Shown: positions 401 to 53,530 of the stretch, piece by piece
Position numbering within the stretch: position 1 is the stretch's first letter
Layout: the number at the start of each line of letters is the position of its first letter
Assembly: GCA_034780895.1 (NCBI GenBank)
Contig: JAUZTB010000064.1
Coordinates: 31,942,970-32,001,896, forward strand
From: Rhynchobatus australiae
Taxonomy: Eukaryota
Direction: 5' to 3'
DNA length: 58,927 bases
Notes under the pieces: model-generated
Seen by the model: the letters and a program-made list of their open reading frames with translations, nothing else
Database searches by the model: none
What the model was told of the DNA's origin: nothing
Program-made: the position numbers and the translations under genes

Positions 401-1215
401 AATATCTGCTTGCAGGAAGGATTCATCATTTTGGCATGTTTAAATATGAATGATACAGGAAGAACATCCCTGACCTGGTTTATATACAAAGCGAAATTCT
501 GAGTGAAACTCTGGGCAGGCTGGTCGGTGAAATATTGTAATTTTTCTCATATCCTCTGTAATGATCGCGGCAGAAATCAGGTGAGATTGTTGAGGCGAGT
601 CACCCCAGGGAGTGTTTTCAGACAATCATCAGACGTTACATGGGAGAAGTACTGTCAATGAACCCTAGAAATGGAAGATGGAGCAGCTTTTTAGCCTATC
701 ATACCCCTGTGGATGCTTCATGTTAAACTGTTGTTATCAATCATAATCCTCAGTGTGGCAATGATGGGCTCTGATGCCGATATAAAAGCACCAGCTTAAA
801 AAACCCTGCCAAAAAGGTGAGAGGTTAAAATTCCAACTGTGTTGAAAAGAACTGACAGCTATTGTGACACAAGATGCTGGTAATCTGGAGCAACACACAA
901 AATGCTGGGGGAGCTCAGCGGGTCAGGCAGCATCTATACAGGGAAATGGACAGTTCGAGACCCTTCATCAGGACTGGAAAGGAAGAGGGGAGAAGCCAGT
1001 ATAAGAGGGTAGAGGGAGGGGATGGAGCAAGAGCTGGTGGGTGATGGGTGGATCCAGGTGAGAGGGGGAAGACGAGCAGGTTAGAGGAAACAAGCTGAGG
1101 CTAGATGCAGATTAGAGGAACAACACCTCATATTCCGCCGTGGTAGTCTCCAGCCTGACTGCATGCATATCAATTTCTCTAACTTCCCACCCCTCTGTCT
1201 CCCACGTTGTTTCCC

Positions 1216-1708: not shown

Positions 1709-1746
1709 CAGTCCTGATGAAGGGTCTCATCCAGAAACGTCGACTG
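1709..1746 (+). ncRNA. Minimal type I hammerhead ribozyme motif in Penelope-like terminal repeat
   Basis: CAGUC-CUGAUGA-A-GGGU(CUC)AUCC-A-GAAA-C-GUC-GACUG: stem I CAGUC/GACUG, conserved core, stem II, predicted cleavage after C1741. Helix III is reduced to the palindrome ACGU. Confidence 0.7.
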
Positions 1747-2179
1747 TCCATTTCCCTCTACGGATGCTGCCTGACCCATTAAGTTCCTCCAGCATTGCTT
1801 GTGTTGCTGACAGTTATTGTGAGCTATCTCTAAATCATTATGATCACACTGGAAGCGGGAAGCAAGCAAACAGCATTTTCACTCATTCCCTAGAACTCGG
1901 AATAGTCGGCCCAGATTTACATCATTCTGTGTAGTGTAAATGTGACAAAAAGGCTCTTTATTTTCCACCCTCTTTGTTTTCTCTTTCACTACTTTTTCTC
2001 TTTTCTTATATGCCTTCCTCATTTTCTTTTTCATGCTCTTTATTTCTTTCTATTTTCTCTCACAATTTCACTTTGTTCAAGTACAAGGGAAAAAAGAATG
2101 CAAGGAGTATGGAATATACACAGAACATGTAGCTTTAGTAAATATTGATTTAATTTACAACTCCTAATAAGAGACAGTC

Positions 2180-6900: not shown

Positions 6901-7199
6901 ACTAACTCACCGAGCCTTCATGGCAAGGCCTCCCATGTTTTGTACTCTATAGCCTTTCCACCTTTTGTAATCACATGGCCGGCAGATTTCCCAATGAACT
7001 CTCTTGTAGCATCCATGTGGGCCTGTTCCCTGCTTAAAATCATGCCCTGAGCAAAAGTGTCTGAAGTTTTTAAGTACTATCTCCTTACTAATGGCCACCC
7101 TACATGACCTTTCAGAGGTTAAATCTAATGCAACAAACAGCTTTGCCTTAATCTGCTAGTCCACATTAAGTAATTCTGCAATACCAAATCCATAAAGGT

Positions 7200-7515
7200 T
7201 TAGAGTCATGAAGTCATACAGCACGGAAACAGGCCCTTTGGCCCAACTTGTCCATGCCAACCAAAAAGCCCATCTAAGCTCGTCCCATTTGCCTGCATTT
7301 GGCCCATATCCTTCTAAACCCTTTCTCTGCATTTACCTATCCAAATGTCTTTTAAATGTTGTTATTGTACCTGCCTCAACCACTTTCTTTGGCAGCTCAT
7401 TCCATATACACACCACCCTCTGCATGAAGAAGTTGCCCTTCAGGTCCCTTTTAAGTCTTTCCCCCCTAACCTGAAACTTATGCCCTCTAGTTTTTGATTC
7501 CCTTTCCCATTTGAA
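7200..7515 (-). mobile_element. CR1 (HER1-like) LINE 3' end
   Basis: Minus-strand peptide ESKTRGHKFQVRGERLKRDLKGNFFMQRVVCIWNELPKKVVEAGTITTFKRHLDR plus typical 3' UTR. Confidence 0.92.
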
Positions 7516-7934
7516 AACAGCACCCTTTTTTCCAGTGTCTTTAGCTTGATCATTTGTTTCTTCTGGTCCCCAGACACACATGAAAGAATTTGTAGCCCTT
7601 GAATATCTGTAGCATTGTTGGATTAAGATGTTTCTTGATTGGATCTATTGTTTAAGATTTTCACTATGTTCCATTATAATACTTGATCTGTAGTCTGTGG
7701 CGCTGGTAGATTTACTGATATGTCTCCAGCTCTGCCATTAGCAGCAATACTACATTCCTCTTCTCATTCATCACTGTGTATCTCTATTTTGTGGCATCCC
7801 AGGGACTTGCTGATGCAGTTTGCATTCAAGGATATTTCTACTCATTTCACATACAGGGTAACTGGTTTTATGCACTAATAACTTATGCTATTTTTACAGA
7901 TCTACTTAGAGAACTACACTATATACTTTTCTCA

Positions 7935-8949: not shown

Positions 8950-9370
8950 TTTAAAGTTCATCTTAATCATTTTGTTTGTAGTATTCCTCCTCCCTTTTTC
9001 AGCTGCAGCAGTTCAGTTTACCAAAAGCATGGATTAAATCTGTTCAGAACTAATGTGATGTAACTCTGCAAATGACTGCATAGAGCTGAAAGTAAAAGAT
9101 CCTACAAATTCTGGAAAACAAGGTGCTGGAAATTCTGCAGGCAGTGAAGAAAAAGAGCAGTTTAATGTTTTGTTTGCAGGCCCTTTGGATCTGATAATAG
9201 CCTTCGGTTAAAATACTAACCTAACTTTTCCATTTACAGATGCTGATGAAACTTCTGCATGTTTCTTACACTTATTTAAGATGTATTATTTAAATAATGG
9301 AGTGTTTGGCACCACCAAGGATCCTGGAATACTTAAATCTTGTCAGATAACCTCAGAACCTTATTTAATC
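8950..9370 (+). repeat. Direct repeat copy 1 (~420 bp) flanking the Ig exon
   Basis: Aligns collinearly with 10297-10714 (ttcctcctccctttttcagctgc, ccctttggatctgataatag, caccaccaaggatcctgga, cctcagaaccttatttaatc). Confidence 0.93.
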
Positions 9371-9830: not shown

Positions 9831-10070
9831 TTCCAACTTGAATTGTTATTTGATTCTTCAAGCTTTCACTGTGTTTTTCATGGCAGCTATAGGTCCCACT
9901 GTGTAATGAATCTATGTTTATGAGGGTGAGATTGGTGCCTTGAAGAAGGTGACCTTCATTGTGGGTTATCGCATGTCCATTAAATCTCCATATCACTGGA
10001 GTATGACTGTCAGATGTCTCGCACGGCAGGGTTACATTGGTTCCAATCCGTTTGTAGTATTTTCGCCCTT
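9831..10070 (-). CDS. cntfr: CNTFR Ig-like domain exon (EGRKYYKRIGTNVTLPCET...VIWRFNG...HSGTYSC...QITIQVG)
   Basis: Ig C-W-C pattern closely resembling CNTFR (YERLGSDVTLPC..VTWRVNG..HSGLYAC..QVLLHVG) more than IL11RA/IL6R. Acceptor ctaatttcag|AA at 10071/10070, donor GGAA|GTAAGT at 9831/9830. 240 nt, phase 1-1, no stops. Confidence 0.92.
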
Positions 10071-10296
10071 CTGAAATTAGAGAAAACATTTGTGATATTA
10101 TCTTATATGCTGCCTTTTACTGGTACCATCTGCTCACCAATACCTCATCCAAGTGACTACTTTTGATGTCTGAACCTAGAGGGAGTACTGTCAAGCAATA
10201 TAGTCATAATAAGTAGGAATCACTGGGGTTAATCAGAAGTAGATTGTCTGAGTGATTTTTGTTTCTCTCTAATATTGCTAAAGTAAATGCTCAGTG

Positions 10297-10714
10297 TTTA
10301 AAGTTCAGCTCAATCATTTTGTTTGTAATATTCCTCCTCCCTTTTTCAGCTGCTTCAGTTCCATTTACCAAAAGCATGGATTAAATTTGTTCAGAATTAA
10401 TTTGGTGCAACTCTGCAAGTGATTGTATAGAGCTGAAAGTAAATTCTGGAAAAGAAGGTGCTCGACTTGTCAGCAGGCAGTAAAGAATAAGAGCAGTTTA
10501 ATGTCTTGGCTACAGACCCTTTTGGATCTGATAATAGATCGGCAGTCAAAACACTAACCTGACTTTTCCATTTACAGATGCTGTTGAAAATGTTGCATAT
10601 TTCCAATCACTTCTTTAACAGGTAATTTATTCTTTAAATAATGATATGTTTGTCACCACCAAGGATCCTGGACTGCTTAACTATTGACAGATGACCTCAG
10701 AACCTTATTTAATC
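10297..10714 (+). repeat. Direct repeat copy 2 (~420 bp) flanking the Ig exon
   Basis: Roughly 80% identical by eye to 8950-9370. Confidence 0.93.
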
Positions 10715-23240: not shown

Positions 23241-24384
23241 CACTGTATCGATCGCAAAATTAACAGGTTACAGTTGTATGGACAGAGTATAGGTTACACA
23301 AAGATGCTGGGTATTTTTCAAGAGATGTGTTTTCTAAATTCATGCTCAGGATTTTATGGTATCAGTCCTGGAATTACATGGATCCATCATAAGTCTGTGT
23401 CGAGCTAGGTGACAGAATCCAACACATCTGTCTCTGCACTTCATCACTGGACTCCACATGGAGTCCAATAGCAGAGGCTGGATATGTTAGATTATGCTAC
23501 AGATTCTTCCTNNNNNNNNNNNNNNNNNNNNNNNNNNNNNNNNNNNNNNNNNNNNNNNNNNNNNNNNNNNNNNNNNNNNNNNNNNNNNNNNNNNNNNNNN
23601 NNNNNNNNNNNTACAGATTCTTCCTCTCCGATCCCAGACGAGAGGGAATGTGGATTCCTGGCTTGAAGATTACAAGGGAAGAGAAAATTCTGTTTTTTTT
23701 ATCCACTTATTTTACTTTCAGGTATAATTAAAAACAGTACAACACTATTTTAATCACATTTATTCACCTAAAAACAAAAGTTAAAATTACTTAATTTTAT
23801 TTTAATAGTTAATTAGTTCTTAAATGTCTAAATTTCAAGGACATTTTAAAAACTTACAAAGCCTTGACAACTTTGACAACAATTGAAGGTCTATCACCAG
23901 TCTTGCATCCTATCAAGGATTATCATGCTTTTCCAGGGCTGAAACTTCTGTGGTGCACTGCCTGAAACCTGGTCACCACTCATGCCTCACCATATTTTAC
24001 TGTATGCCTCTCAGGTGTAGGGTTGGTGGTAGTAAGGGGTTGGATTTGCGGTCAGGTCAAGTGTCCCTCCACTTTCAGACCAGTTGACGGAGGGCAGGTG
24101 AAAGTGGGACCAATTCAGCCTGTGGTGTAACATTTTCTAAAGACAGTGATTAATTATATGAAGCATAATGGTCTTATTATAGGCCCATACTTTTAAATCT
24201 TTCTAAATGTGTATTAATAGTGAACTTAGTGATATATGCCAAGGTGTTTAAAATGATTTAAATGGACTTTGGACAACCAAATATTATGGTGATACTACAA
24301 TAACCTTAATCTGAATGAATTTGATTGTAGAGTGTTTTTTGTTACTTAAGAAAGTGCCACACCCAAACAAACAAGCTAGCAAGG

Positions 24385-25170
24385 ACAAAATATAAAAGCA
24401 GGGAAGTTATGTTACAGCTTTATAAAACATTGGTAAGGCCACATCTGGAATACTGGGTGCAGTTTTGCTTGCTAGAATATAGAAGGGCTGGGATTGTACT
24501 GGAGAGGTTGCAGAGGAGATTCACCAGGATGTGCCTTGGTTATGAGGAGGGACTGGATAAACTGAGTTTGCTTTCCTTGGAGCAGAGAAGACTCGAGGGT
24601 GACATATATAGGGTAGACAGCAAAAAACTTTTCCCTATAGCAGAGGTATCTTTAACTATGGGGCAAAGATTGAAGGTTTGAAGGTTAGGAATAAGAGGTT
24701 TAGAATGAATATTAGGAAGATTTTTTTTTACCAAGAAGATAGTTGGAATTTGGAATGCACTGTCTGAGAAGGTGATGAAGACACAGATTCTCACAATATT
24801 TAAGAACTATCTAACATTAAGCTGTTACAGCGACACCGATCGGGGTTCAATTCCCTGTGCTGTCTGTAAGGAGTTTGTACGTTCTCCCCGTGACTGCATG
24901 GGTTTCCTCTGGGTGCTCCGGTTTCCTCCCACATCCTAAAGACGTGTGGGTTAGTAGGTTAACATGAGTGTAATTGGGCGGCGAGGGCTCATTGGGCCAG
25001 AAGGGCCTGTTACTGTGCTGTATAAATAAAGTTTTAAGCAAAGGTGAGCACTTGAATCACTAAGGTGTAGACTGCTCATAAATAGGATTAATATAGGCGG
25101 ATACTTGATGGTTGGCATGGACAGAGTGAACTGCAGGGCCCGTTTCTGTGCTGTATGACCATGACTCTAA
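24385..25170 (+). mobile_element. CR1 LINE 3' portion interrupted by a SINE
   Basis: MLQLYKTLVRPHLEYWVQF...LERLQRRFTRM...SLEQRRLEGD; tail gtttctgtgctgtatgaccatgactct. Confidence 0.9.
24815..25035 (+). mobile_element. HE1/V-SINE inserted into CR1
   Basis: ggggttcaattcc B-box, gagtttgtacgttctccccgtgactgcatgggtttcctctgggtgctccggtttcctcccaca V-domain. Confidence 0.88.
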
Positions 25171-26195: not shown

Positions 26196-26274
26196 CCGGC
26201 CCGCTGTGGCTTCGAGTATGCACCAGCAAAATGGCCAGCACCACGCAGTAGGCAGAAGCAACAATATTTGCCAT
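26196..26274 (-). CDS. cntfr: CNTFR first coding exon (signal peptide, MANIVASAYCVVLAILLVHTRSHSGP+G)
   Basis: Hydrophobic N-terminus resembling tetrapod CNTFR (MAAPVPWACCAVLA...RHSPQE, from memory). Acceptor cttgttttcttaacag lies immediately before the ATG; donor CCGG|GTAAG follows 26196. 79 nt = 26 codons + 1 (phase 1), joining the Ig exon as G+AA=Glu. Confidence 0.9.
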
Positions 26275-31200: not shown

Positions 31201-32339
31201 ACTGATTACATAACAATACACACCTGAGCCCCATCANNNNNNNNNNNNNNNNNNNNNNNNNNNNNNNNNNNNNNNNNNNNNNNNNNNNNNNNNNNNNNNN
31301 NNNNNNNNNNNNNNNNNNNNNNNNNNNNNNNNNNNNNNNNNNNNNNNNNNNNNNNNNNNNNNNNNNNNNNNNNNNNNNNNNNNNNNNNNNNNNNNNNNNN
31401 NNNNNNNNNNNNNNNNNNNNNNNNNNNNNNNNNNNNNNNNNNNNNNNNNNNNNNNNNNNNNNNNNNNNNNNNNNNNNNNNNNNNNNNNNNNNNNNNNNNN
31501 NNNNNNNNNNNNNNNNNNNNNNNNNNNNNNNNNNNNNNNNNNNNNNNNNNNNNNNNNNNNNNNNNNNNNNNNNNNNNCAATTTTACCTGCATTTGTTTCT
31601 CCAATAACCAGGAACACAATCCAATCCAGGCAGGATATTGGGTTGGGTGGGGGCAAGATCGAACTGAAAAGGCAGACAGCCTGTCACTCAAATTCGTAGT
31701 TACAGCTCAGATATTTACACAACACTTAGAATGGAGACACAAGGTGAAATGCAGGACACAAGTATGCTGCAGGAAGGTTCAGGGTAACGGATAGTCCAGT
31801 TTGTGAGAAGAACTCAGATGATGATCTCATTGGAGAAAAAGAGGCTGAAAGGTGTACACATCCAAATTCTTGGAGCACTGAAAAGTTTATCAGAAAGGAG
31901 TAAGGAAGAATAGAATCTGTCTCCAACTTGGCATAGGGCTTGGAACCCTTCCTTTCTACCTCTATTAATACACCCATGGTAATGATGCAAAATCTCAGCT
32001 ACCACTGTAGAGCAAACATTCATTCCATCCTCAGGTGTTGCAGTGAAAGTGCATCATGCAATCTCAGTTTCCTGTTATTCATGTTCAGTCTGCCGTTACA
32101 ATGACAATGAGCACCAACACATAAAGNNNNNNNNNNNNNNNNNNNNNNNNNNNNNNNNNNNNNNNNNNNNNNNNNNNNNNNNNNNNNNNNNNNNNNNNNN
32201 NNNNNNNNNNNNNNNNNNNNNNNNNNTGGTCCTCCAACTTGCGCCTGGCCTCAACGTAGCAGCCCATGGACAGACATGTCGGTGTGGGAGTGGGGTGTGG
32301 AATTCAAGTGGGCTATCTAAGGGCCACGGGTTTGAACAG

Positions 32340-32470
32340 AATTAATGTTAAGGTCTAAGACCCTTCAGATGAAGAGTCTTCAACCTGAAACATTGACTCT
32401 GTTTCTCCCTCCACGGAAGCTGCTTGACCTGCTGAGTATTTCCAGTGTCTTCTGCTTTATTTCAGATTTG
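32340..32470 (+). mobile_element. Penelope-derived terminal remnant with mutated hammerhead core
   Basis: cagatgaagagtcttcaacctgaaacattgactctgtttctc..gctgcttgacctgctgagtatttccag. Confidence 0.6.
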
Positions 32471-32816: not shown

Positions 32817-33635
32817 TAGAACGTAGAACATTACAGCACAGTACCTTCGGCCCACAGTGTTGTGCTGACATTTTATCCTGCTCTATGAACTATCTAACCC
32901 TTCCCTCCCACATAGCCCCCCATTTCTCTATCATTCACGAGTCTATCTAAGAGTCTCTTAAATGTCCCTAATGTATCTGCCCCCACAACCTCTACCGGCA
33001 GTGCATTCCATGCACCCACTACTCTCTGTGTAAAAAAAAGTTACCCCTGACATCCCCCTTATACCTTCCTCCAATCACCTTAAAATTATGCCCCCTCATG
33101 TTAGCCATTGTTGCCCTGGGAAAAAGTCTCTGACTGTCCACTCAATCTATGTTTCTTATCTTGTACACCTCTATCAAGTCACCTCTCATCTTCCTTCTCT
33201 CCAAAGAGAAAAGCCCCAGCTAGCTCAATCTATCCTCATAAGACATGCTCTCCAATCCAGGCAACATCCTGGTAAATCTCCTCTGTACCCTCTCTAATGC
33301 CTCCACATCCCTCCTATAATGAGGAGATCAGAACTGAACACAATATTCCAAGTGTGATCTGACCAGAGTTCTATAGAGCTGCAACATCACCTTGTGGCTC
33401 TTGAACTCAATACCCCGATTAGAAGGCCAACACTCTATACACCTTTTTAACAATCCTATCGACCTGCGTGGCAACCTTGAGGAATCCATGGACGTGGACC
33501 CCAAGAGCCCTCTGTTCCCCCACACTGCTAAGAGTTCTGCCATTAACCTTGTATTCTGTCTTCGAATTCGATCTCCCAAAGTGTATCACTTCACACTTAT
33601 CTGGGTTGAACTCCATCTGCAACTTCTCAGCCCGG
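32817..33635 (-). mobile_element. Relatively young CR1 LINE 3' portion
   Basis: QMEFNPDKCEVIHFGRSN, GIEFKSHKVMLQLYRTLVRSHLEYCVQF; tail tagaacgtagaacattacagcacag. Confidence 0.92.
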
Positions 33636-36600
33636 CATTCACAGCTTTCATCTGTTTCTTCAGCACCTTCTTCCTAAACATCTCCTCCTGCTGAGAAACT
33701 GTCTTCTCCTCCTATTCCTCTTCCTTCTCTTCTCGCACTCTTCTCACAGCTTATTCCACTGTCTGTTGACTCTATTCATTCTCCCACTCATACTCAGTGC
33801 CAAGAGGAAACCTTCCAAGGCCACTCATATGTGCAGTGATTTGTGCACAGGCTTTTCAGTCACCAAGAAAATATTTTGGCACTAACAAATCCACATCCAA
33901 TATACTGATGGAACTTTTAACAAATATGGAAAAGCAAACAAAATGTGTAAGTTTGTACCAACAACCAGAAGAAATAATCCACAACTATTTTGTAGCTAGT
34001 TGAGGACTAATTTAAACATTGCCATTGTGGGTTCTTTTATATCACTGAACACGGATGTAGCTGTGGAAAGTTGAGCAGGAGTCTAGGCTGAGGCTTGAAA
34101 CTCCAAATGAATGTAAATTTGGAATTTTAAGTAACCTTGTGGTGCTCAAAAATGTCCAGTTCCAAAGCCTGTTTCCTCTCTGCCGTATTTATTTCTTCCA
34201 ACATCAAAGCAACAGCTCCTGTTTTCCAACTCCCAAGTCAAATGCAACCCACCCCCCAACCCCCACTTCAATTTATTTCCAATTAGTTGTTAATTATGAT
34301 CAGTTTTACACTATGGCTTTGTTCCCAGTAGGAACTAAGATGAGGCTGTCAAAGCTAATTTCTTTCAAAACACTTACAAGTGAATGCAGGCATCTGAAAG
34401 GGTGACTGACTTCATCCCAGCAGTCTGAGCTTAGTTTCAGTTAGTTTCTTTGTTGAATGAATGCTATTCTAACAGCACATTACCCATTTTAAAAGAGAAA
34501 AGATTGTTGGACAAGTCACCAGGAACCTCTGTTAAACAATTCATTACACCCAGTTCAAAAGTTGATTCGATATTAACCTTGGAGTGATTTATCCATCCAC
34601 TGCTCTGTCCAGGTATCATATGGACAGCAGGCTCTTCAGTCCCTAACCCCTGTCCTATCATTGAAACAGGCAATATGTCATCTGTACCTGAATTCTATTT
34701 ACCTGCTTTTGAACTATACCCACTCAACATATAAAATATCCCTTGATCTTAGTTTTGAAAATTTAACTCAACAGTTCAGGCTTGAGGAGGAGAGAGTTTG
34801 CATGTTTCTTTGCCATTTTTGAAAGCTCTTAATTTCATTGGCTTTAATTTTATGGTTGTGACTCTTTGTTCTGGTTTGCCCTGCAAAAGAAGTGTTTTCA
34901 TCCTATCAAATCCTTTATCATTTTAGACTCCAGTTGATCAGTCCTAAACTTTCTAAAGACAGGAGAATATGACCCAAGCTTGCACAATCCATGACTGTTG
35001 AAGCCCTAGTTTATCTCTCTTTAAGCCTTCACATGTGAAATATAAAGAGGGCAAAATGATTCATAAGTGGATATGAGAAAGAAACATGAACTTCCCTCAT
35101 GATGGTTGCTAAATACAGCAAAAATGCTTTGTTACTCAGCTATCTCAACCAGAAAGATCCTTGGTTCAATCACACATACTGCAAGTCAGCTAACCAAACT
35201 GCAAATAGCAGAATTAATCTTAGTGTTCTGAGATCTAAGAGTTGTGTGCTGAATAGAAATCAACCTGCTTCTGAAGGCTATTCATTGTGCTGAACCAGAA
35301 ATCACATGTGAGGTGAATGACAGCTGAGGATAGTTTTAGCTGCAGCTGTGTCTCTCCTGCAGTTGAAAAGCACGTCAAAGCTAACATATTGAAAATGGTT
35401 GATGTATTGGGAGCTGTTGGTACCCGCGGAAATGGAATTGCATCAAGAGTTAATACCCTCAGGAGTAAAGAACAATGGTAGAAGTATTGGAAGCGGGAAA
35501 ATACAACATGGGAAAATATTTCAAAATAAGTCAAAAGTAAAATCCAAAAAAAAAATTCTTGTCAATTAAGTGTAAAGGAATTACCAAAAAGAATTAGTGC
35601 TGAAACAGAGCTATAAGTCATAACTGCTGTATTTCTTTGAATGAATTACAATAGCCTCATTGCATAGCTCATAGGCTTCGAGCTGCAGTTAGAGATTTTT
35701 TTTTAGAATGATGCTGTCATCCTCAGAGACTTCAATAAAAAAGAAACAGCTGATAAAGTTTCTGACAGATTCACAGCATTATGCAAAAGAGACTCCCATA
35801 CTGGCTGCAGTGATTAAGACAAAGCTATGATATTAATGTGTTCCCTTGCCCTTGGGAACGACTCACTGTTCTTCACTTAAAAACAAGGAGATATTTATAT
35901 CGATTATATAGTATTCCAAGAAAAAAAGAAACAAAAATGACAAAAGTGATATGATATATCTGTTCTGGCTTATAACATGCCTCCTTTGCAACTGATAACT
36001 TCCAGATGTTTAAACCCACTATAGAGCAGTAAATATAATTCTTATTAATATTCTCTAATGGAAAACACATTGAGGGTGCAGCATTGAAAAAGGCATTGTT
36101 ATTCAAAGAAAAAACTGAGTTCCATTTTATGTGCCATGTGTTTGGTTGTTTTTGTCCAGGTTTAGTATGACAACATCCTTATAAATGCAAGTAGATATAA
36201 ATTATTGTCTTCCGTGCTAATAAATGCTAAGAATTGACAATTTGTTAGAAACAGCATAGATAAATTCCAGGATATATAAATGAAAAAAGTTAGTGGGGGC
36301 AGGAGTCAGTCAGAACCTTTCCACCCAAAGAGTAACTGAGTTGCCTAACATGATATGCAAGGGAGAAGTATAAATGGGTCAGCAAGACAATTAACTGTAT
36401 TTTTGTAGAGGGAAAGAATTCAGAAATTTGGTGAATAAGCAGGTAGATAGATCACTAATCAATAAATCAATAAGGAGGAATAGTTTTGGAGGATTTAGTG
36501 TTACCACTCCTTTAAATTCATATATAATTTTTCAAATAAATTATATATAAATACCAGGGTGACCAGAATTTAACTTGTCAACTTATTTTCCTTCCTGACA

Positions 36601-37729: not shown

Positions 37730-39330
37730 AAGAACATGAGCTAATCTGAAATATTTCTATGGTGGCCTAACTCAGTTTATATCTTTATTAGCTCCACATG
37801 CACTGGTCTGTATTGTCTCCTGGTCCATTACTGTAAACCTTCTCCATTCTTACAACATTCTGAGATCTCTTGTTGCTACAACTCTGGTCTCTTTCGCATT
37901 CAGCAATTCCTTTACTTCACCAGTGATGGCTATGCCTTCAATGCTCTCATCCCTAAAGTCTGGTTATTTTCCCTTCACTTATTCTGACAGTCAGCTTTTA
38001 GAGTCAGGAATCATAGAGTTGTGCAGCACAGAAATGGGCCCTTCAGCCTCAGATGACATGGCTCACTAATCATATCACCACCAATTCTCATGCCATCTGC
38101 AAACTATTAATCATACCTCCTACATTGACATTCAAGTCATTAATATATATTGCAAACAACAAAGTTCCCAGCATCGATCCCTATAGTACACGACTGGTCA
38201 TAGACCAGCAATCAGAAAAACATCCTTCCACCATCACCCTCTGCTTCCTTTCACCAAGCCAATTTTGGATCCAATTAGCCATCTGGAATTGGATCCCCTA
38301 TGCTTTAGCCTTCTGGACCAACCTATCATGTGGGACCTTGCCATATGCCTTACTAAAATCCATCTAGACAATATCTACCACCTTGTCTTCATCANNNNNN
38401 NNNNNNNNNNNNNNNNNNNNNNCAATCAAATTGGTGAGGCAAGATTTCCCAGTATTATTCTGACTATCCCTGGGAAATCCCTACCTTTTCAATTGTACCT
38501 AAATCCTATCCCTCAGGATTTTTCCAGTAATTTCTCTATCATCAGCCTGTAGTTAACTGGCTTCTCCCTACTACCCTTCTTAAATAAAGGAACAACATTA
38601 TCTATACTCCAGTCTTCTGACACCGCACATGTGATGACTAATGGCTAATGAAGATGCACAAATCCTTGTCAGGGCCCCAGTCATCTTCTTCCATGCTGCC
38701 CATAGCATCCTTGTATAGCTATCATCTAGCCATGGGGATCTATCAACCATTATGTAGTGCATGATGTCTAACACCCACACCTTGTTAATACAGACACACT
38801 CCAAATTATTAATGTATCCCTCTCTGTACTCACAATCTTCCCCATTCTTTTCCTTGATGAATACAAATGAGAAGTATTCATTTAGGACCTCATCCATATC
38901 CCCTGGCTTCACACATATGTTACCCCTTTGGTCCCTNNNNNNNNNNNNNNNNNNNNNNNNNNNNNNNNNNNNNNNNNNNNNNNNNNNNNNNNNNNNNNNN
39001 NNNNNNNNNNNNNNNNNNNNNNNNNNNNNNNNNNNNATATACTTATCGAAAATCTAAGGATTCTTCTTAATCTTACTTACCAAGGATATTTTCTACCCTC
39101 TTTTGCCCTCCTACTTATTTTTTAAGTTCTCTCTTACACCATCTGTATTCCTGAGAAGACTCACTCAATTCTAGTTTTTTTTCTCTCTAGAAACTGATAA
39201 GAAGCTATTTATTTGACCGTGTTTTTGGTTATATCTTCTTCTCTGGTGAGTTACTTCTGATTTTCCTACTGTGATCTATCTAGGGACAATTCATTATGTT
39301 AAGTACATTATATGAATACAAATTGTTGTT
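37730..39330 (+). mobile_element. L2-like LINE 3' end split by a CR1 insertion
   Basis: 37730-37985 resembles an L2 ORF end (NLL..YN..RSL...NSGL, G.AF....PK.W); 39195-39330 carries an L2-like tail tatgttaag..ttatatgaatacaaattgttgtt. Confidence 0.55.
38000..39180 (-). mobile_element. Internally deleted CR1 LINE
   Basis: MDEVLNEYFSFVFIKE, VDRSP.LD..Y.RML, LDGF.KA.GKVPHDRL, WIQNWL and CR1 tail aatcatagagttgtgcagcacagaaatgggccc. Confidence 0.85.
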
Positions 39331-48664: not shown

Positions 48665-49262
48665 AGGGTTAAAGGCAGACTAGTCACTAAGACCCGATAG
48701 CCTGCACCCAAGGATTTTAGAGGAAGTGGCTGCAGAGATAGATTTTTAAAACCTCACTGAATATTGGGAGGGTACTAATGGATTGGACAACAGCATATGT
48801 GACTCCCTACTCAAAAATAGAGGAAGACCAAAGTTAGGAAACTATAGGCCCGTTATTTTAACATGTATTATTGGCAAGATGCTAGTTAATAATCAAAGAA
48901 GAAATAACTAATCATTAGGGAAATCAGATCAAGTCAGCATAATTTCATGAAAGGCAAATTATGTTTAACAAATTTGTTTGAGTTCTTTGAAGTTGTAAAA
49001 AGTAGAGTAGATAGAGGGGATCCTGCAGATGTTGTATATTCAAACTTCCAAAAGGCATTTGACAAGGTGCCACTAAGAGGCTGGTGTACCAGGTAAAAGA
49101 TCATTGCATTAGAAGAAGTGTTAGCATGAATTAAAGGCAGGTTATCACACAGAAAACAGTGAATTGGAACAAATGGGTCCTTTCCAGGTTCAAAAGATGT
49201 AACTTGCGGTGTAATTTCTAGGTTAATTTCTTGGCCCTCAAATAATCTGCTATTTACATGAA
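48665..49262 (+). mobile_element. CR1 ORF2 RT fragment
   Basis: LKAD.S..PD.LHP.IL.EVAAEI, GNYRPV.LT..IGK, QHNFMKGKLCLTNLFEFFE, DVVYSNFQKAFDKVP. Confidence 0.85.
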
Positions 49263-50132
49263 ATACCAGGAGGAGGGGCAGAAAGACGCTCAGGTTTGCT
49301 GTGATTCTGCAACTGGATGTAGGTAGGTGGAGTGATTTGGGCGATAAATCCTCAGGAGACAAACTATCCAATGACATTTACTAAAAAAAACCCTGACTCT
49401 AACAGCTACCTTGACTACACCTCCACCCACCAGATCTCTTGTAAGATGACATCCGTTTCTCTCACCTTCACTGTTTCCACTATATCTGCTCTGAAGATGA
49501 GGCCTTCTGTTGCAGGACATCTGAAATGTCCTCCTTTATGAGGAAATGTGGCATCCCCTTAGTGTAGTTAATGGAGCACTCCTGTGCATTCCCTCTATTT
49601 CCAAGACTTCAGCTCTCAAGCCTCCCCCCTCCAAACAGCATAGAGATAAAATTTCCCTTGGTCCTCACCTTTCACCCTGGTAGCCTCTGTATCCAGTATA
49701 TCATCCTTCTTCATTTCTGCCTGTTGCAATGGGATCCCACCACCAGCCATGCCTTCCCCTTCCTGCTATTCACAGGGACTACCCTTTCCATGACTCCGTG
49801 GTCTGCTCATCCCTCCTCGCTCTTTCTTTTGCACCCACCTCTCCCTGACGCCTGGCACTTTCTGCTGCAATGGCGGGAGGTGCAATACTTGTGCCTACAC
49901 CTCCTCCTTCACCACCATGGAGGACCCTAAACAGCCATTCCAGGTGAGTCAAAGATTCTTATGCGTCTTCTCCAACCTGCATTTGGTGCTCTCGATGTGG
50001 CCTCCTCTACACCCTCTACATCAGTGAGACCAAGAACAGACTTGGAGACCAGTTCAGAGAGGACCTGTGCTCTGTCTGCAGTTGCCATCCCGTGCTCCCA
50101 GTCGCATGCCATTTTCACCTCCCCTTCCAATT

Positions 50133-50345
50133 TTGTACATTCTGCCCCCCAGAATGTCTGCGTGGGTTTCCTCCGGGTGCTCCAGTTTCCTCCCAGATTC
50201 CAAAGACGTACAGGTTAGGAAGTTGTGGGCATGCTATGTTGGCGCCAGAAACGTGGCAACATTTGCGGGCTGCCCCCCAGAACACTATGCAAAAGAAGTA
50301 TTTCACTGTGTTTCGATGTACATGTGACTAATAAAGGTATATTGA
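50133..50345 (+). mobile_element. V-SINE-like insert with Rex1-like tail inside Penelope
   Basis: gtctgcgtgggtttcctccgggtgctccagtttcctccca V-domain; tail tttcactgtgtttcgatgtacatgtgactaataaa resembles 11230-11265. Confidence 0.8.
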
Positions 50346-50994
50346 TCTTTAATTCCCACACCAACCTGGTCAATGTCAGCCCTCTCCACAGCCAAGGTGA
50401 TGCCAAACAAGACTTGAAGAACAACATCTCATAGTCTACCTGGGTAGTTTACAACCCAATGGTATGAACATTGAACTTTCCAACTTCAGGTAACCCTTAC
50501 CCATGCCCCCCCCACTTAAGTCTCCACACTCTCTTTTATCCATAAACCCCTCTAGTTCCCATCTCTCAGTTTTGTCCCCCTCCCCCAGTTGGTTCCATCC
50601 ATCTATCACTCACACACTTTTCCCACAGGGTCTCTATGTCCTCCCCAGCTGGTTCCAGCTGCCCCATTAGCACTCACTTCTCTTGATCCACATTACCTTC
50701 CCTATTTATCAGAGTCCAGCATTTGCACCACTTGTGCCTCCACTTATCACCCCTCAGCCTCTACCTTCACTCTCCCCTCTCCCCACCTGGCTCCTTCTGC
50801 CCTTTATTCTCCTTCTTTGTCTGTTTCCACCTGTCACCCCCTGTCTCCCAACTCCACTTCTTGCCCTCCCCCACCCCCACCTTTCATCATCTGCTCATCA
50901 TCCCTCAACACCTAGGTCCACTTATCACCTACTAACCCCTGCCTCACCCCTCCCTCTCTCCCCTTTATTCTGGCTATCCTGCCTCTACGCTCTC

Positions 50995-51031
50995 TGACCT
51001 GATGAAGGGTCTTGACCTGAAACGTCAACTA
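50995..51031 (+). ncRNA. Hammerhead ribozyme motif (core intact, stem I decayed)
   Basis: CUGAUGA(50999-51005)-A-GGGUC(UU)GACCU-GAAA-C-GUC(51024-51026). Confidence 0.55.
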
Positions 51032-53530
51032 TTCCTTTCCCTCCCCAGGTGCAGGCTGGCCCACTGAGTTCTTCCAGCAGTTTGATTTTTGCTCCAGATT
51101 CCAGCATCTGCAGTCTGTGTCTCGACAAACAAAGCTGTACCTTAAGCCATTGTGGCATGCTGACACACCGTGCTGTCATACCACTCTCCACTGTACCAAT
51201 AACAAAGCATTTTTGCTTCCATCCCTAACCCCAAACTCTGATCTTGCCACAGACCTGGAGGAAACTCAGATTTTTCAGAAATTTAGCTTATTTGCAAATT
51301 TTTTTGACAGCCTGCCCAGTTTAGAAAATGCGCAGTTTTCAAAAATTAAATCCATCGATTTCTCATAATTTAACCCAGGAAGCTCAAAAATGATGTGAAA
51401 AACAGAACTGCACATGCAACCACAATAATTAAGTATCTATAAACTGCTTAAAGAATACGGTCTGTGTATTCCATTGTATGTTTAACTTGTACTGCAGATG
51501 TTGCAGACTAGAATGGAAAGCATTTCTCGTACAGTCTGAACTGTCTCCTTTAATATTGGAAAATCGGGCAATGTTTAGTATGTTGTGACCCATTATAAAT
51601 GGTTCTTCTACAATAATTTTCAGAAGTTATTGTTTGTAGTTCCTATATTGCTTTGTAATTTATCTCCAGATTTTCTGTCCGCCCAGACACAGTATGGGTC
51701 ATTACTTATCAGGAACGTATAATGCACTCAATACATAAGTTTTGTTCTATTCATTTCATTCATCAGATGGAAAATTGTGGGATTCCAAAAACAATAATAT
51801 TTGTGCCAACCTTATAAATATGTGCAGATGAAACCAATGATGATGCATTCTTCAAGTATTGGAATTTAATAAATATGTAATAATTGCACCTATATTTAAT
51901 ATCTCATCTAACCACAAAAAAAATCGCCATTTTAAAACTACTGGTAAATTACTGTACTTTGCTTTGTATATTTGTCAAATGTACTGTGTACCTTATCTCA
52001 GTGATTATGTATCAGATGATTTGAGATGTCCTGAATTCTAGAGAAGTTCCATGAAAGATAATTGTTCTCTTTATCTGTCTGATAGCCAATCGTTAACTCA
52101 CCTTTTGCTCTAACCTTGCTGTGCAATGATTTACAATAATATTGAGAAGATAGGAACAACACACCCTTTCTAGTTTAATCCTCTTTTTTTGCTGTCATCC
52201 TTGAGCTTCAAGTGTATGACACTCCACAAATAAGACAGTAGTAAATTGAACTATTGAAAAAAATTTCCTGACTCTGTTCAAAATGTGAACATGAGAAGAC
52301 AAGAAAGCATACAGAGAAAAGTTTTCTTGGTATATCAATTTTCCTCTGACAAGGCATGTTGTAATTACTTTCTCTTAGTCTTGCCCCCAATTAGTTAACC
52401 TTCTTGTGGAATATTAACCTTCTGTTACTCACTTTCAAGGTTAGTGAAAGGAAAACTATCTCATATACCTCCCCCGCCCACTTTTTTCTCTTCGTACACA
52501 CATTATTTTTTTTGTAATTCTCATCAGTTGCTTTAAGTAGTCCTTCAAATACAGAATTCTGGGGTCAAAATTCTACTCTAACTGGGAGACAAAATGTCCA
52601 GCTTCGAAACAGCTAGCCATCAAACATTATTTCCACTGTATTTTTCCATTCACTGTACTTTTTACGTTAATGTTAAAGGGAAGGAGAATTAGCAGCCCAA
52701 ATGCTTCTGCCAAAATGGAATTTTAACCCAATTAAATCTATAATGTTACTTAAATATATGGATCATCTTTCTTTATAATTATCATGCTAATCTTTCAACA
52801 TTATTTCCAACCATATATTTCTGCAGCCCACTCTCAAGCAATTAAAAGGGTTTTCAATGTTGTCTTGCTCCTTCCAATTTTTTTTGCTTGGAGAATTCAA
52901 TTGAGGGAATATGTTTATATTCATATTATAAGCTTCTCAGCAATTTAAAGTCTTGAAGTATATCCCATAACAGTAAATGTTTTCAAATGAAATTAAATTT
53001 AGTTCTGTAAATATCGTTTTTTTTAAACTTGGATCCATGAGAGTTTTAGAATCAGTGTTAAAATCTTCTTCAAAGCTTCTTCATCCATTCTTCACTTTGT
53101 CAATGATATACACAAGGAGCAACTTATTAGATGTTATAATAAAACCTCCTCCTTATTCAACCTACTGCTAAAATAGGTCCTAACAAACATGTTCACATAT
53201 GTTGCATATTTATAGTTAATGGTGAATCTGCTTTCATATCCTTTCCCTATTCTTTGTTGTTAATAAACTCTCTATTTCCAACTACACCTGCCATTGTTCT
53301 CTTGCAATGTGCATCAATTTACATTAAAATCCCCTACTTGCCTACCTGCTTGTTTAACTGGCTCAGATCTCTTTGAAGTCTGTCTCCCTCAACTTTTATC
53401 ACATATCAACATAGATTAGTAACAAAAATTACAAGATTACCAGCATGCTGCACTGTAAATAGCAGGACAACTAAACCATAATAGCTGTCATCCCAAAGGA
53501 ATCTTTCCCTCTGAATGTTTCGAATTCATT

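Follow-up and report, generated by a model that had tools for sequence, protein, structure and literature searches.

The DNA analysed here (the window) is a 58,927-base stretch of the Rhynchobatus australiae genome that carries two coding exons of cntfr on its minus strand. Compared with solved structures, the minus-strand open frame has matches to CNTFR chains (E 1.7e-10); a higher score went to an Fc receptor-like protein, through several weak Ig matches. The homologues of the frame were all named CNTFR (6/6), with 94% identity in Leucoraja erinacea and 90% in Hypanus sabinus. By tblastn, the first coding exon (aa 1–25) was located at 26200–26274 (−; E 2e-9) and the Ig-domain exon (aa 27–106) at 9832–10071 (−; E 3.6e-45, 92.5% to the homologue P0001), with a GT donor just downstream. 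A direct duplication of ~420 bases (82% identity) lies either side of the Ig exon, at 8950–9370 and 10297–10714. Later cntfr exons were not found within the window by tblastn. Because they are missing, a hammerhead-like motif at 1709–1746 (+), together with the insertion that carries it, is placed in the intron 3′ of the Ig exon, which would run past base 1.

This intronic location had been given by a sequence-only reading of the same DNA and is confirmed, but the strand changes its meaning. Since cntfr is encoded on the minus strand and the motif lies on the plus strand, the motif is antisense to the gene and absent from the cntfr pre-mRNA, which carries its reverse complement, not a hammerhead. 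The position is thus not the sense-strand one expected of a host-domesticated intronic hammerhead, and a reading of the motif as a ribozyme acting on the host transcript is not supported in this orientation. The related proposal that the family seeds self-cleaving motifs through introns comes down to an abundant repeat inserting in large introns.

The motif is part of an insertion bounded by a target-site duplication, with the left copy at 852–867 (+) and the right copy at 1807–1822 (+). The two copies are identical at 15/16 bases, and two bases at each end of the left copy overlap the element, giving a duplication of 12–16 bp. At ≤2 mismatches, the sequence occurs at only these two places in the window, and both coincide with the repeat edges, where sequencing depth rises or falls. 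Inside the left copy, 868–1065 (−) is an inverted copy of the element 3′ end (identical to 1618–1808 at 154/191 columns, with 14 gap columns), which extends into a tail absent from the forward copy. This inverted arm is the one that is sense to cntfr. The forward part includes the C-terminal end of the element open reading frame, a GIY-YIG endonuclease remnant at 1091–1207 (+) that was matched in tblastn by 5 of 88 longer homologues (best E 4.8e-9), and also by P0025 (E 2e-7) and P0009 (E 5e-6). Within the head-to-head junction (1066–1123), a stretch of 12–13 bases at 1081–1093 repeats the start of the endonuclease remnant (1112–1123), which suggests templated filler in the joining.

Downstream of the endonuclease remnant lies an assembly gap of 100 N (1216–1315). 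The 70 bases flanking it on each side are identical at 68/70 positions, so the gap is likely an unmerged assembly overlap, although it could hide sequence. It is followed by a C/T-rich 3′ untranslated part (1316–1708, +) of high repeat depth, with 62.5% identity over 416 columns to a sister copy described below, by the motif itself, and by the remainder of the terminal repeat (1747–1808, +), which by alignment is a short end without the tail; depth is single-copy past ~1806. A long open frame at 1318–1779 was considered as a gene and rejected, being C/T-rich 3′ sequence with no gene support. Overall, the copy is 5′-truncated and lacks the RT, and its layout combines 5′ truncation, an inverted 5′ copy and a tail at one end only.

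A longer sister copy was identified by tblastn and translation at 49334–51114 (+). It comprises a decayed RT end, a CX4CxxC linker near 49866–49890 that is absent from the truncated cntfr-intron copy, a GIY-YIG endonuclease and the terminal repeat. Its hammerhead core lies at 50999–51025, with a broken stem I, and failed the descriptor used below; no target-site duplication was found for this copy. The sister endonuclease is split by an insert of ~200 bases (about 50130–50330) that matches 24874–24960 and that we take to be a V-SINE-type short element from its resemblance. In total, the window holds 10 family remnants, nine recovered by nhmmer (two of them weak) and one, at 1–78, by self-comparison. 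Only the 1709–1746 copy among these 10 passed the descriptor. A third unit with inverted layout occupies 32257–32448, where an endonuclease fragment (32322–32257, −; E 5.5e-4) adjoins a terminal-repeat remnant (32365–32448, +).

A Pfam scan of nine decayed window fragments returned nothing significant, and a word-based search with 49568–49765 gave no match. Five homologues were scanned with Pfam: in P0089 RT and GIY-YIG each exceeded the cut-off, P0027 and P0038 showed both with at least one below it, and P0073 and P0091 had one domain each (RT or GIY-YIG). In P0089, P0027 and P0038 the RT precedes the GIY-YIG domain, and a CX2-5CxxC linker is present in 65 of 70 homologues having the endonuclease motif. 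In one of the tblastn searches the queries were 16 of 20 protein matches, with P0007, P0008, P0014 and P0015 left out. By these sequence features, the element is assigned to the endonuclease-bearing Penelope-like elements (PLEs). It is likely of Neptune type, a clade assignment that rests on the sister copy, whose linker Nematis also has. As far as the available part of Craig et al. (2021, PMC8557442) describes the Neptune clade, the shared characters are the C-terminal GIY-YIG domain, the CX2-5CxxC linker in the sister copy, 5′ truncation, an inverted 5′ copy and a tail at one end; the same source gives the linker as a mark of Nematis too, and the cntfr-intron copy differs in lacking the RT.

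Other decayed RT-like fragments lie at 7196–7644, 24331–24936, 33034–33673, 38017–38936 and 48800–49220, where Pfam found nothing significant. The RT part of P0009 matched 38336–38112 (E 2.6e-10) and 33616–33545 by tblastn. From their resemblance, these fragments are presumably of a CR1/L2-type LINE. Several database gene models (P0009, P0022, P0023, P0030 and P0097) are chimeras that join pieces of the element open reading frame to unrelated domains or host gene names. Because such pieces are fused into several gene models, the repeat contaminates protein predictions.

At 1709–1746 (+), the letters are the same as those read earlier and make up a minimal type I hammerhead motif with a mutated stem II. 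Stem I is formed by five Watson–Crick pairs (1709–1713 with 1742–1746). The core segment C3–A9, CUGAUGA (1714–1720), is followed by an extra A at 1721, the unpaired base between positions 9 and 10.1. Stem II pairs 1722–1725 with 1729–1732 (G-C, G-C, G.U and U-A) around a loop of 3 nt, and a further extra A (1733) stands directly before the core GAAA (1734–1737). The GUC triplet at 1739–1741 predicts a cut after C1741, and the ACGU at 1737–1740 is palindromic at positions 15.2–16.2, which would permit a dimer.

We searched both strands with a published descriptor for minimal hammerheads (min-HHRs; PMC4209133, Fig. S7), which specifies stem I of 3–7 bp, CUGANGA(+N), stem II of 3–7 bp and (N+)GAAANNUH. 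Among the 58,927 bases, N gaps being unseen by the search, the 1709–1746 motif was the single match. In 1,000 dinucleotide shuffles of the window there were eight matches in total, and none with stem I ≥5 and stem II ≥4; one match in the window against eight in 1,000 shuffled windows indicates that the motif is not a chance occurrence. A stricter descriptor with stem II abutting G12 gave no match; the published one permits the extra base before GAAA. The motif thus stands as originally described, with its 5-bp stem I, full core, stem II, GUC triplet and ACGU palindrome, and the descriptor match together with the colinear GIY-YIG remnant upholds its placement as a minimal type I hammerhead within a Penelope-like terminal repeat. 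The Infernal-type check with Hammerhead_1 (RF00163) that had been proposed for it came out negative. Rfam returned no match and no hammerhead family over the whole window at the gathering score; at E ≤10 there were four matches in 600–2200 and three in 1680–1780, none a hammerhead, and we rejected these as chance since all fall far under their cut-offs. Folding of the isolated 38-mer is no more stable than that of its shuffles (z −0.22). Support for the motif is its core pattern and context, not stability, and it is by descriptor that we class 1709–1746 as a metazoan PLE min-HHR.

Comparison with the rest of the family shows how far stem II has changed. Family letters were taken from the loose ends of sequencing contigs, which fit this copy badly and form a biased set. 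In 4/4 runs their consensus for stem II is GGGU-CUCG-ACCC running directly into GAAAC (agreement 0.50–0.63). Stem II at 1709–1746 differs from it at 3/12 bases (1729, 1730 and 1733). The inverted twin retains the family letters at the equivalents of 1729 and 1730, which marks these two changes as mutations since insertion. In the family register, G10.1 would face an A, and G12 is preceded by A1733 instead of the family C. Stem II can pair only after a one-base slip, a register that keeps the G-C closing pair and that the descriptor tolerates. The predicted hairpin is less stable than that of the family motif (−0.3 versus −3.4 kcal/mol). The inverted twin has lost more: a 12-nt deletion between 955 and 954 removed the 3′ arm of stem II, GAAA and the cleavage triplet from its hammerhead, and the deleted family letters reappear as loose ends behind 954 in 4/4 runs. 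CAGATGA replaces the core CTGATGA (hammerhead position 4) in many family contigs of all four runs, at the loose ends at 954 and 1734, and in the window copy at 32366–32393; a subfamily with an altered or dead core may have spread, the loose ends being a biased set.

Folding predictions, which leave out tertiary contacts and co-transcriptional folding, depend strongly on context. Stem I pairs with a probability of 0.93–0.99 in the isolated 38-mer, which drops to at most 0.012 once context of 149 nt or more is added; stem II reaches ~0.2 in the 38-mer and ≤0.003 in contexts of 149–971 nt. When the whole insertion is folded, the two arms are predicted to share 163 pairs, with the hammerhead core paired to its inverted twin. 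Predicted energies favour two monomers (−16.0 kcal/mol) or the best dimer (−21.4) over a double-hammerhead shape (−13.3). The minus strand of 860–1830 behaves similarly, with about 159 pairs predicted between the arms in the cntfr pre-mRNA, a possible double-stranded substrate for RNA editing. The descriptor search found no further intact copy arranged in tandem with the motif on its strand, the window having one match over both strands.

These features tell against the earlier view of this copy as a good candidate for remaining activity: the motif is antisense, mutated in stem II, without a tandem partner and predicted to be sequestered, yet it is the only one of the 10 remnants to pass the descriptor. 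Published cleavage assays, as given in the available parts of the sources, found no activity in min-HHRs tested singly and weak activity in dimers or trimers, dimers of an intact motif included (PMC4209133); among Xenopus dimer elements, 1/9 cleaved and 8/9 did not (bioRxiv 10.64898/2026.07.22.740005). A weak stem II is in itself no proof of inactivity, because engineered trans hammerheads whose helix II is reduced to a single G-C pair can still cleave well (PMC544870).

We used sequencing data from 4 of 12 listed runs, the four being contigs, to gauge the abundance and age of the repeat. None of the 12 is listed as RNA, a result without bearing on expression, and contigs do not resolve ends, strand or level. 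In run X1, which may stem from the same source as the window, 32,318 contigs aligned to 640–2200 at 80% likeness, and summed depth was 270,000–650,000 over the terminal repeats against 6–12 in the flanks; this depth is no copy number, and the terminal repeat is plainly very abundant. Contigs from X1, X2 and X5 bridged the right insertion junction, that of X2 (organism B) with 13 other letters in 434 and that of X5 (organism D) with 34 other letters and 15 gaps. The left junction was bridged in X1 and X2, and run X3 bridged neither. The insertion is therefore common to at least three organisms, B and D included. Its two arms differ at 23/177 aligned bases (13% substitutions, plus gaps). This divergence and the junctions common to organisms B and D indicate that the insertion is old. 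Among the contigs listed for the four runs, none spanned the hammerhead at this locus.

Taken together, the data make it highly probable that the motif is the min-HHR of a Penelope-like, likely Neptune-type, element, carried by one old 5′-truncated insertion in a cntfr intron and likely inactive here. We propose a plausible route to this structure. The element protein would have nicked both DNA strands 12–16 bp apart, and each nick would have served as the primer for a cDNA of the 3′ part of the element RNA, one copied from a long start that included the tail and one from a short start. Head-to-head joining of the two truncated cDNAs would then have left inverted ends, flanked by the duplicated target sites, and carried the hammerhead along within the terminal repeat. 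Parts of this route are consistent with what is described for other PLEs in the available parts of two studies. Truncation at the 5′ end, an inverted 5′ copy and a tail of 30–40 bp at one end are PLE-typical (PMC8557442), and the protein of PAc, a Poseidon element of Anolis, nicked and extended both strands and began reverse transcription at either of two sites, by which the tail is defined (Frangieh et al. 2024, PMC11167929). In the ancestral element, tandem transcripts may have been cut as a dimer through the ACGU palindrome, probably with the help of the element protein. The PAc ribozyme cleaved only with the element protein and was dispensable for insertion in vitro, and that study found no reads ending at its cut site (PMC11167929). 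Today the motif would be in neutral decay, since the cntfr pre-mRNA does not include it, no partner copy is present and pairing with the inverted twin 550 bases away is predicted. All core bases, stem I and GUC remain intact, so that inactivity is no more than likely.

That intactness gives some room to the reading that this copy is still weakly active and cuts antisense or read-through plus-strand RNA after C1741, by pairing in trans via ACGU or with an element protein, to no benefit of the host. The published descriptor is passed, stem I is predicted to form in the isolated 38-mer (0.93–0.99), the family is abundant enough to supply partners in trans, and protein-assisted cleavage is known for another PLE (available text of PMC11167929). 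We nonetheless consider this improbable: stem I is predicted to be lost at 149 nt or more of context (0.012 or less), the double hammerhead is less stable in prediction (−13.3 kcal/mol) than two monomers (−16.0) or the best dimer (−21.4), dimers of intact min-HHRs cleaved only weakly (available part of PMC4209133), and 8/9 Xenopus dimer elements did not cleave (available part of bioRxiv 10.64898/2026.07.22.740005). A bolder idea turns on strand, namely that family hammerheads cut nascent RNA so well that selection removed intact copies from the sense strand of introns. The insertion has the pattern expected of such purging, as the cntfr-sense arm has lost GAAA and the cut site and the antisense arm has kept the core; of the window remnants, 8/10 are antisense, and a full core is missing from both of the sense copies. 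The remnants show no significant strand bias (8/10 on +, p 0.11; 5/7 within the coding span, p 0.45). A rough estimate also puts at about one in five the chance that a 12-base deletion falling at random in a 190-base arm hits the motif. We regard this purging as quite improbable.

Retention by the host appears very unlikely. On this account, the ribozyme or the ~160-bp arm hairpin would have been retained for a role in cntfr regulation, by way of an antisense RNA, RNA editing or splicing. It could draw on the presence of the insertion in at least three organisms and on the predicted pairing of the arms on the pre-mRNA strand too (159 pairs). However, an old shared insertion requires no selection, the arms have diverged by 13% substitutions plus gaps, stem II is mutated, and inverted arms are a normal product of PLE insertion according to the available part of PMC8557442. 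The lack of an Rfam hammerhead match and a folding z-score near zero could be taken as signs of a chance match, or of a motif belonging to a SINE or a tandem retrozyme rather than to a PLE. This account is largely refuted and scarcely credible, given just eight descriptor matches in 1,000 shuffled windows, a motif that is colinear with an endonuclease remnant in both the cntfr-intron and the sister copies, and a self-comparison with no tandem array. An inactive PLE min-HHR in an old insertion thus remains the preferred reading.

The motif belongs to a class that has already been described. With the min-HHRs of metazoan PLEs (Cervera and De la Peña 2014, PMC4209133), as given in the available text and supplement, it shares the type I topology, CUGANGA plus an extra base, a stem II opening with G, GAAA followed by C-G-U-C, the absence of a helix III loop, a short stem I, and dispersal mostly as single copies of truncated PLEs in pseudo-LTRs. 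The legend to Fig. S4A of that study places another motif at the 5′ end in opposite orientation, as in this insertion. The extra base before GAAA in 1709–1746 is seen in 1/56 GAAA entries in the text of Fig. S3 and here goes back to a change in the C that closes stem II in the family. The supplement file searched does not name any cartilaginous fish.

PAc shares the terminal-repeat hammerhead and the two 3′ ends that define the tail, and its nicking and extension of both strands in vitro fits the inverted layout of the cntfr-intron insertion. It differs in belonging to another clade and in being a complete element, whereas the cntfr-intron copy is a truncated fossil known from sequence alone (available text of PMC11167929). 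Non-LTR retrozymes, as far as the available parts of PMC7229834 and bioRxiv 10.64898/2026.07.22.740005 describe them, likewise have a type I hammerhead in a repeat related to the PLE terminal repeat. Theirs are non-coding tandem arrays, in contrast to the single unit with an open reading frame remnant and an inverted partner found here; identity with a tandem retrozyme was rejected, as self-comparison revealed no tandem unit and an open reading frame remnant is attached. Such retrozymes are reported in one chondrichthyan genome in the available part of the bioRxiv study, and the word "shark" does not occur in the available text of PMC7229834. Our literature search found no paper on the hammerhead of this elasmobranch family; the chondrichthyan families in the available part of bioRxiv 10.64898/2026.07.22.740005 could include it.

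The 1709–1746 copy thus adds an ordinary member, likely inert, to a known class; being one decayed example of a motif already described, and sitting in a very abundant repeat, it matters little as it stands. The insertion around it shows cleanly how an inverted Penelope copy is laid out, complete with target-site duplication and a tail on one side, and fits priming from both nicked strands. If intact copies are indeed purged from sense strands, the huge copy numbers in shark and ray genomes would amount to a genome-wide in vivo test of min-HHR activity by strand bias. More generally, skates and rays carry enough copies of the family for a statistical test, through intron strand bias and selection on core and stems, of whether min-HHRs cut RNA in vivo.
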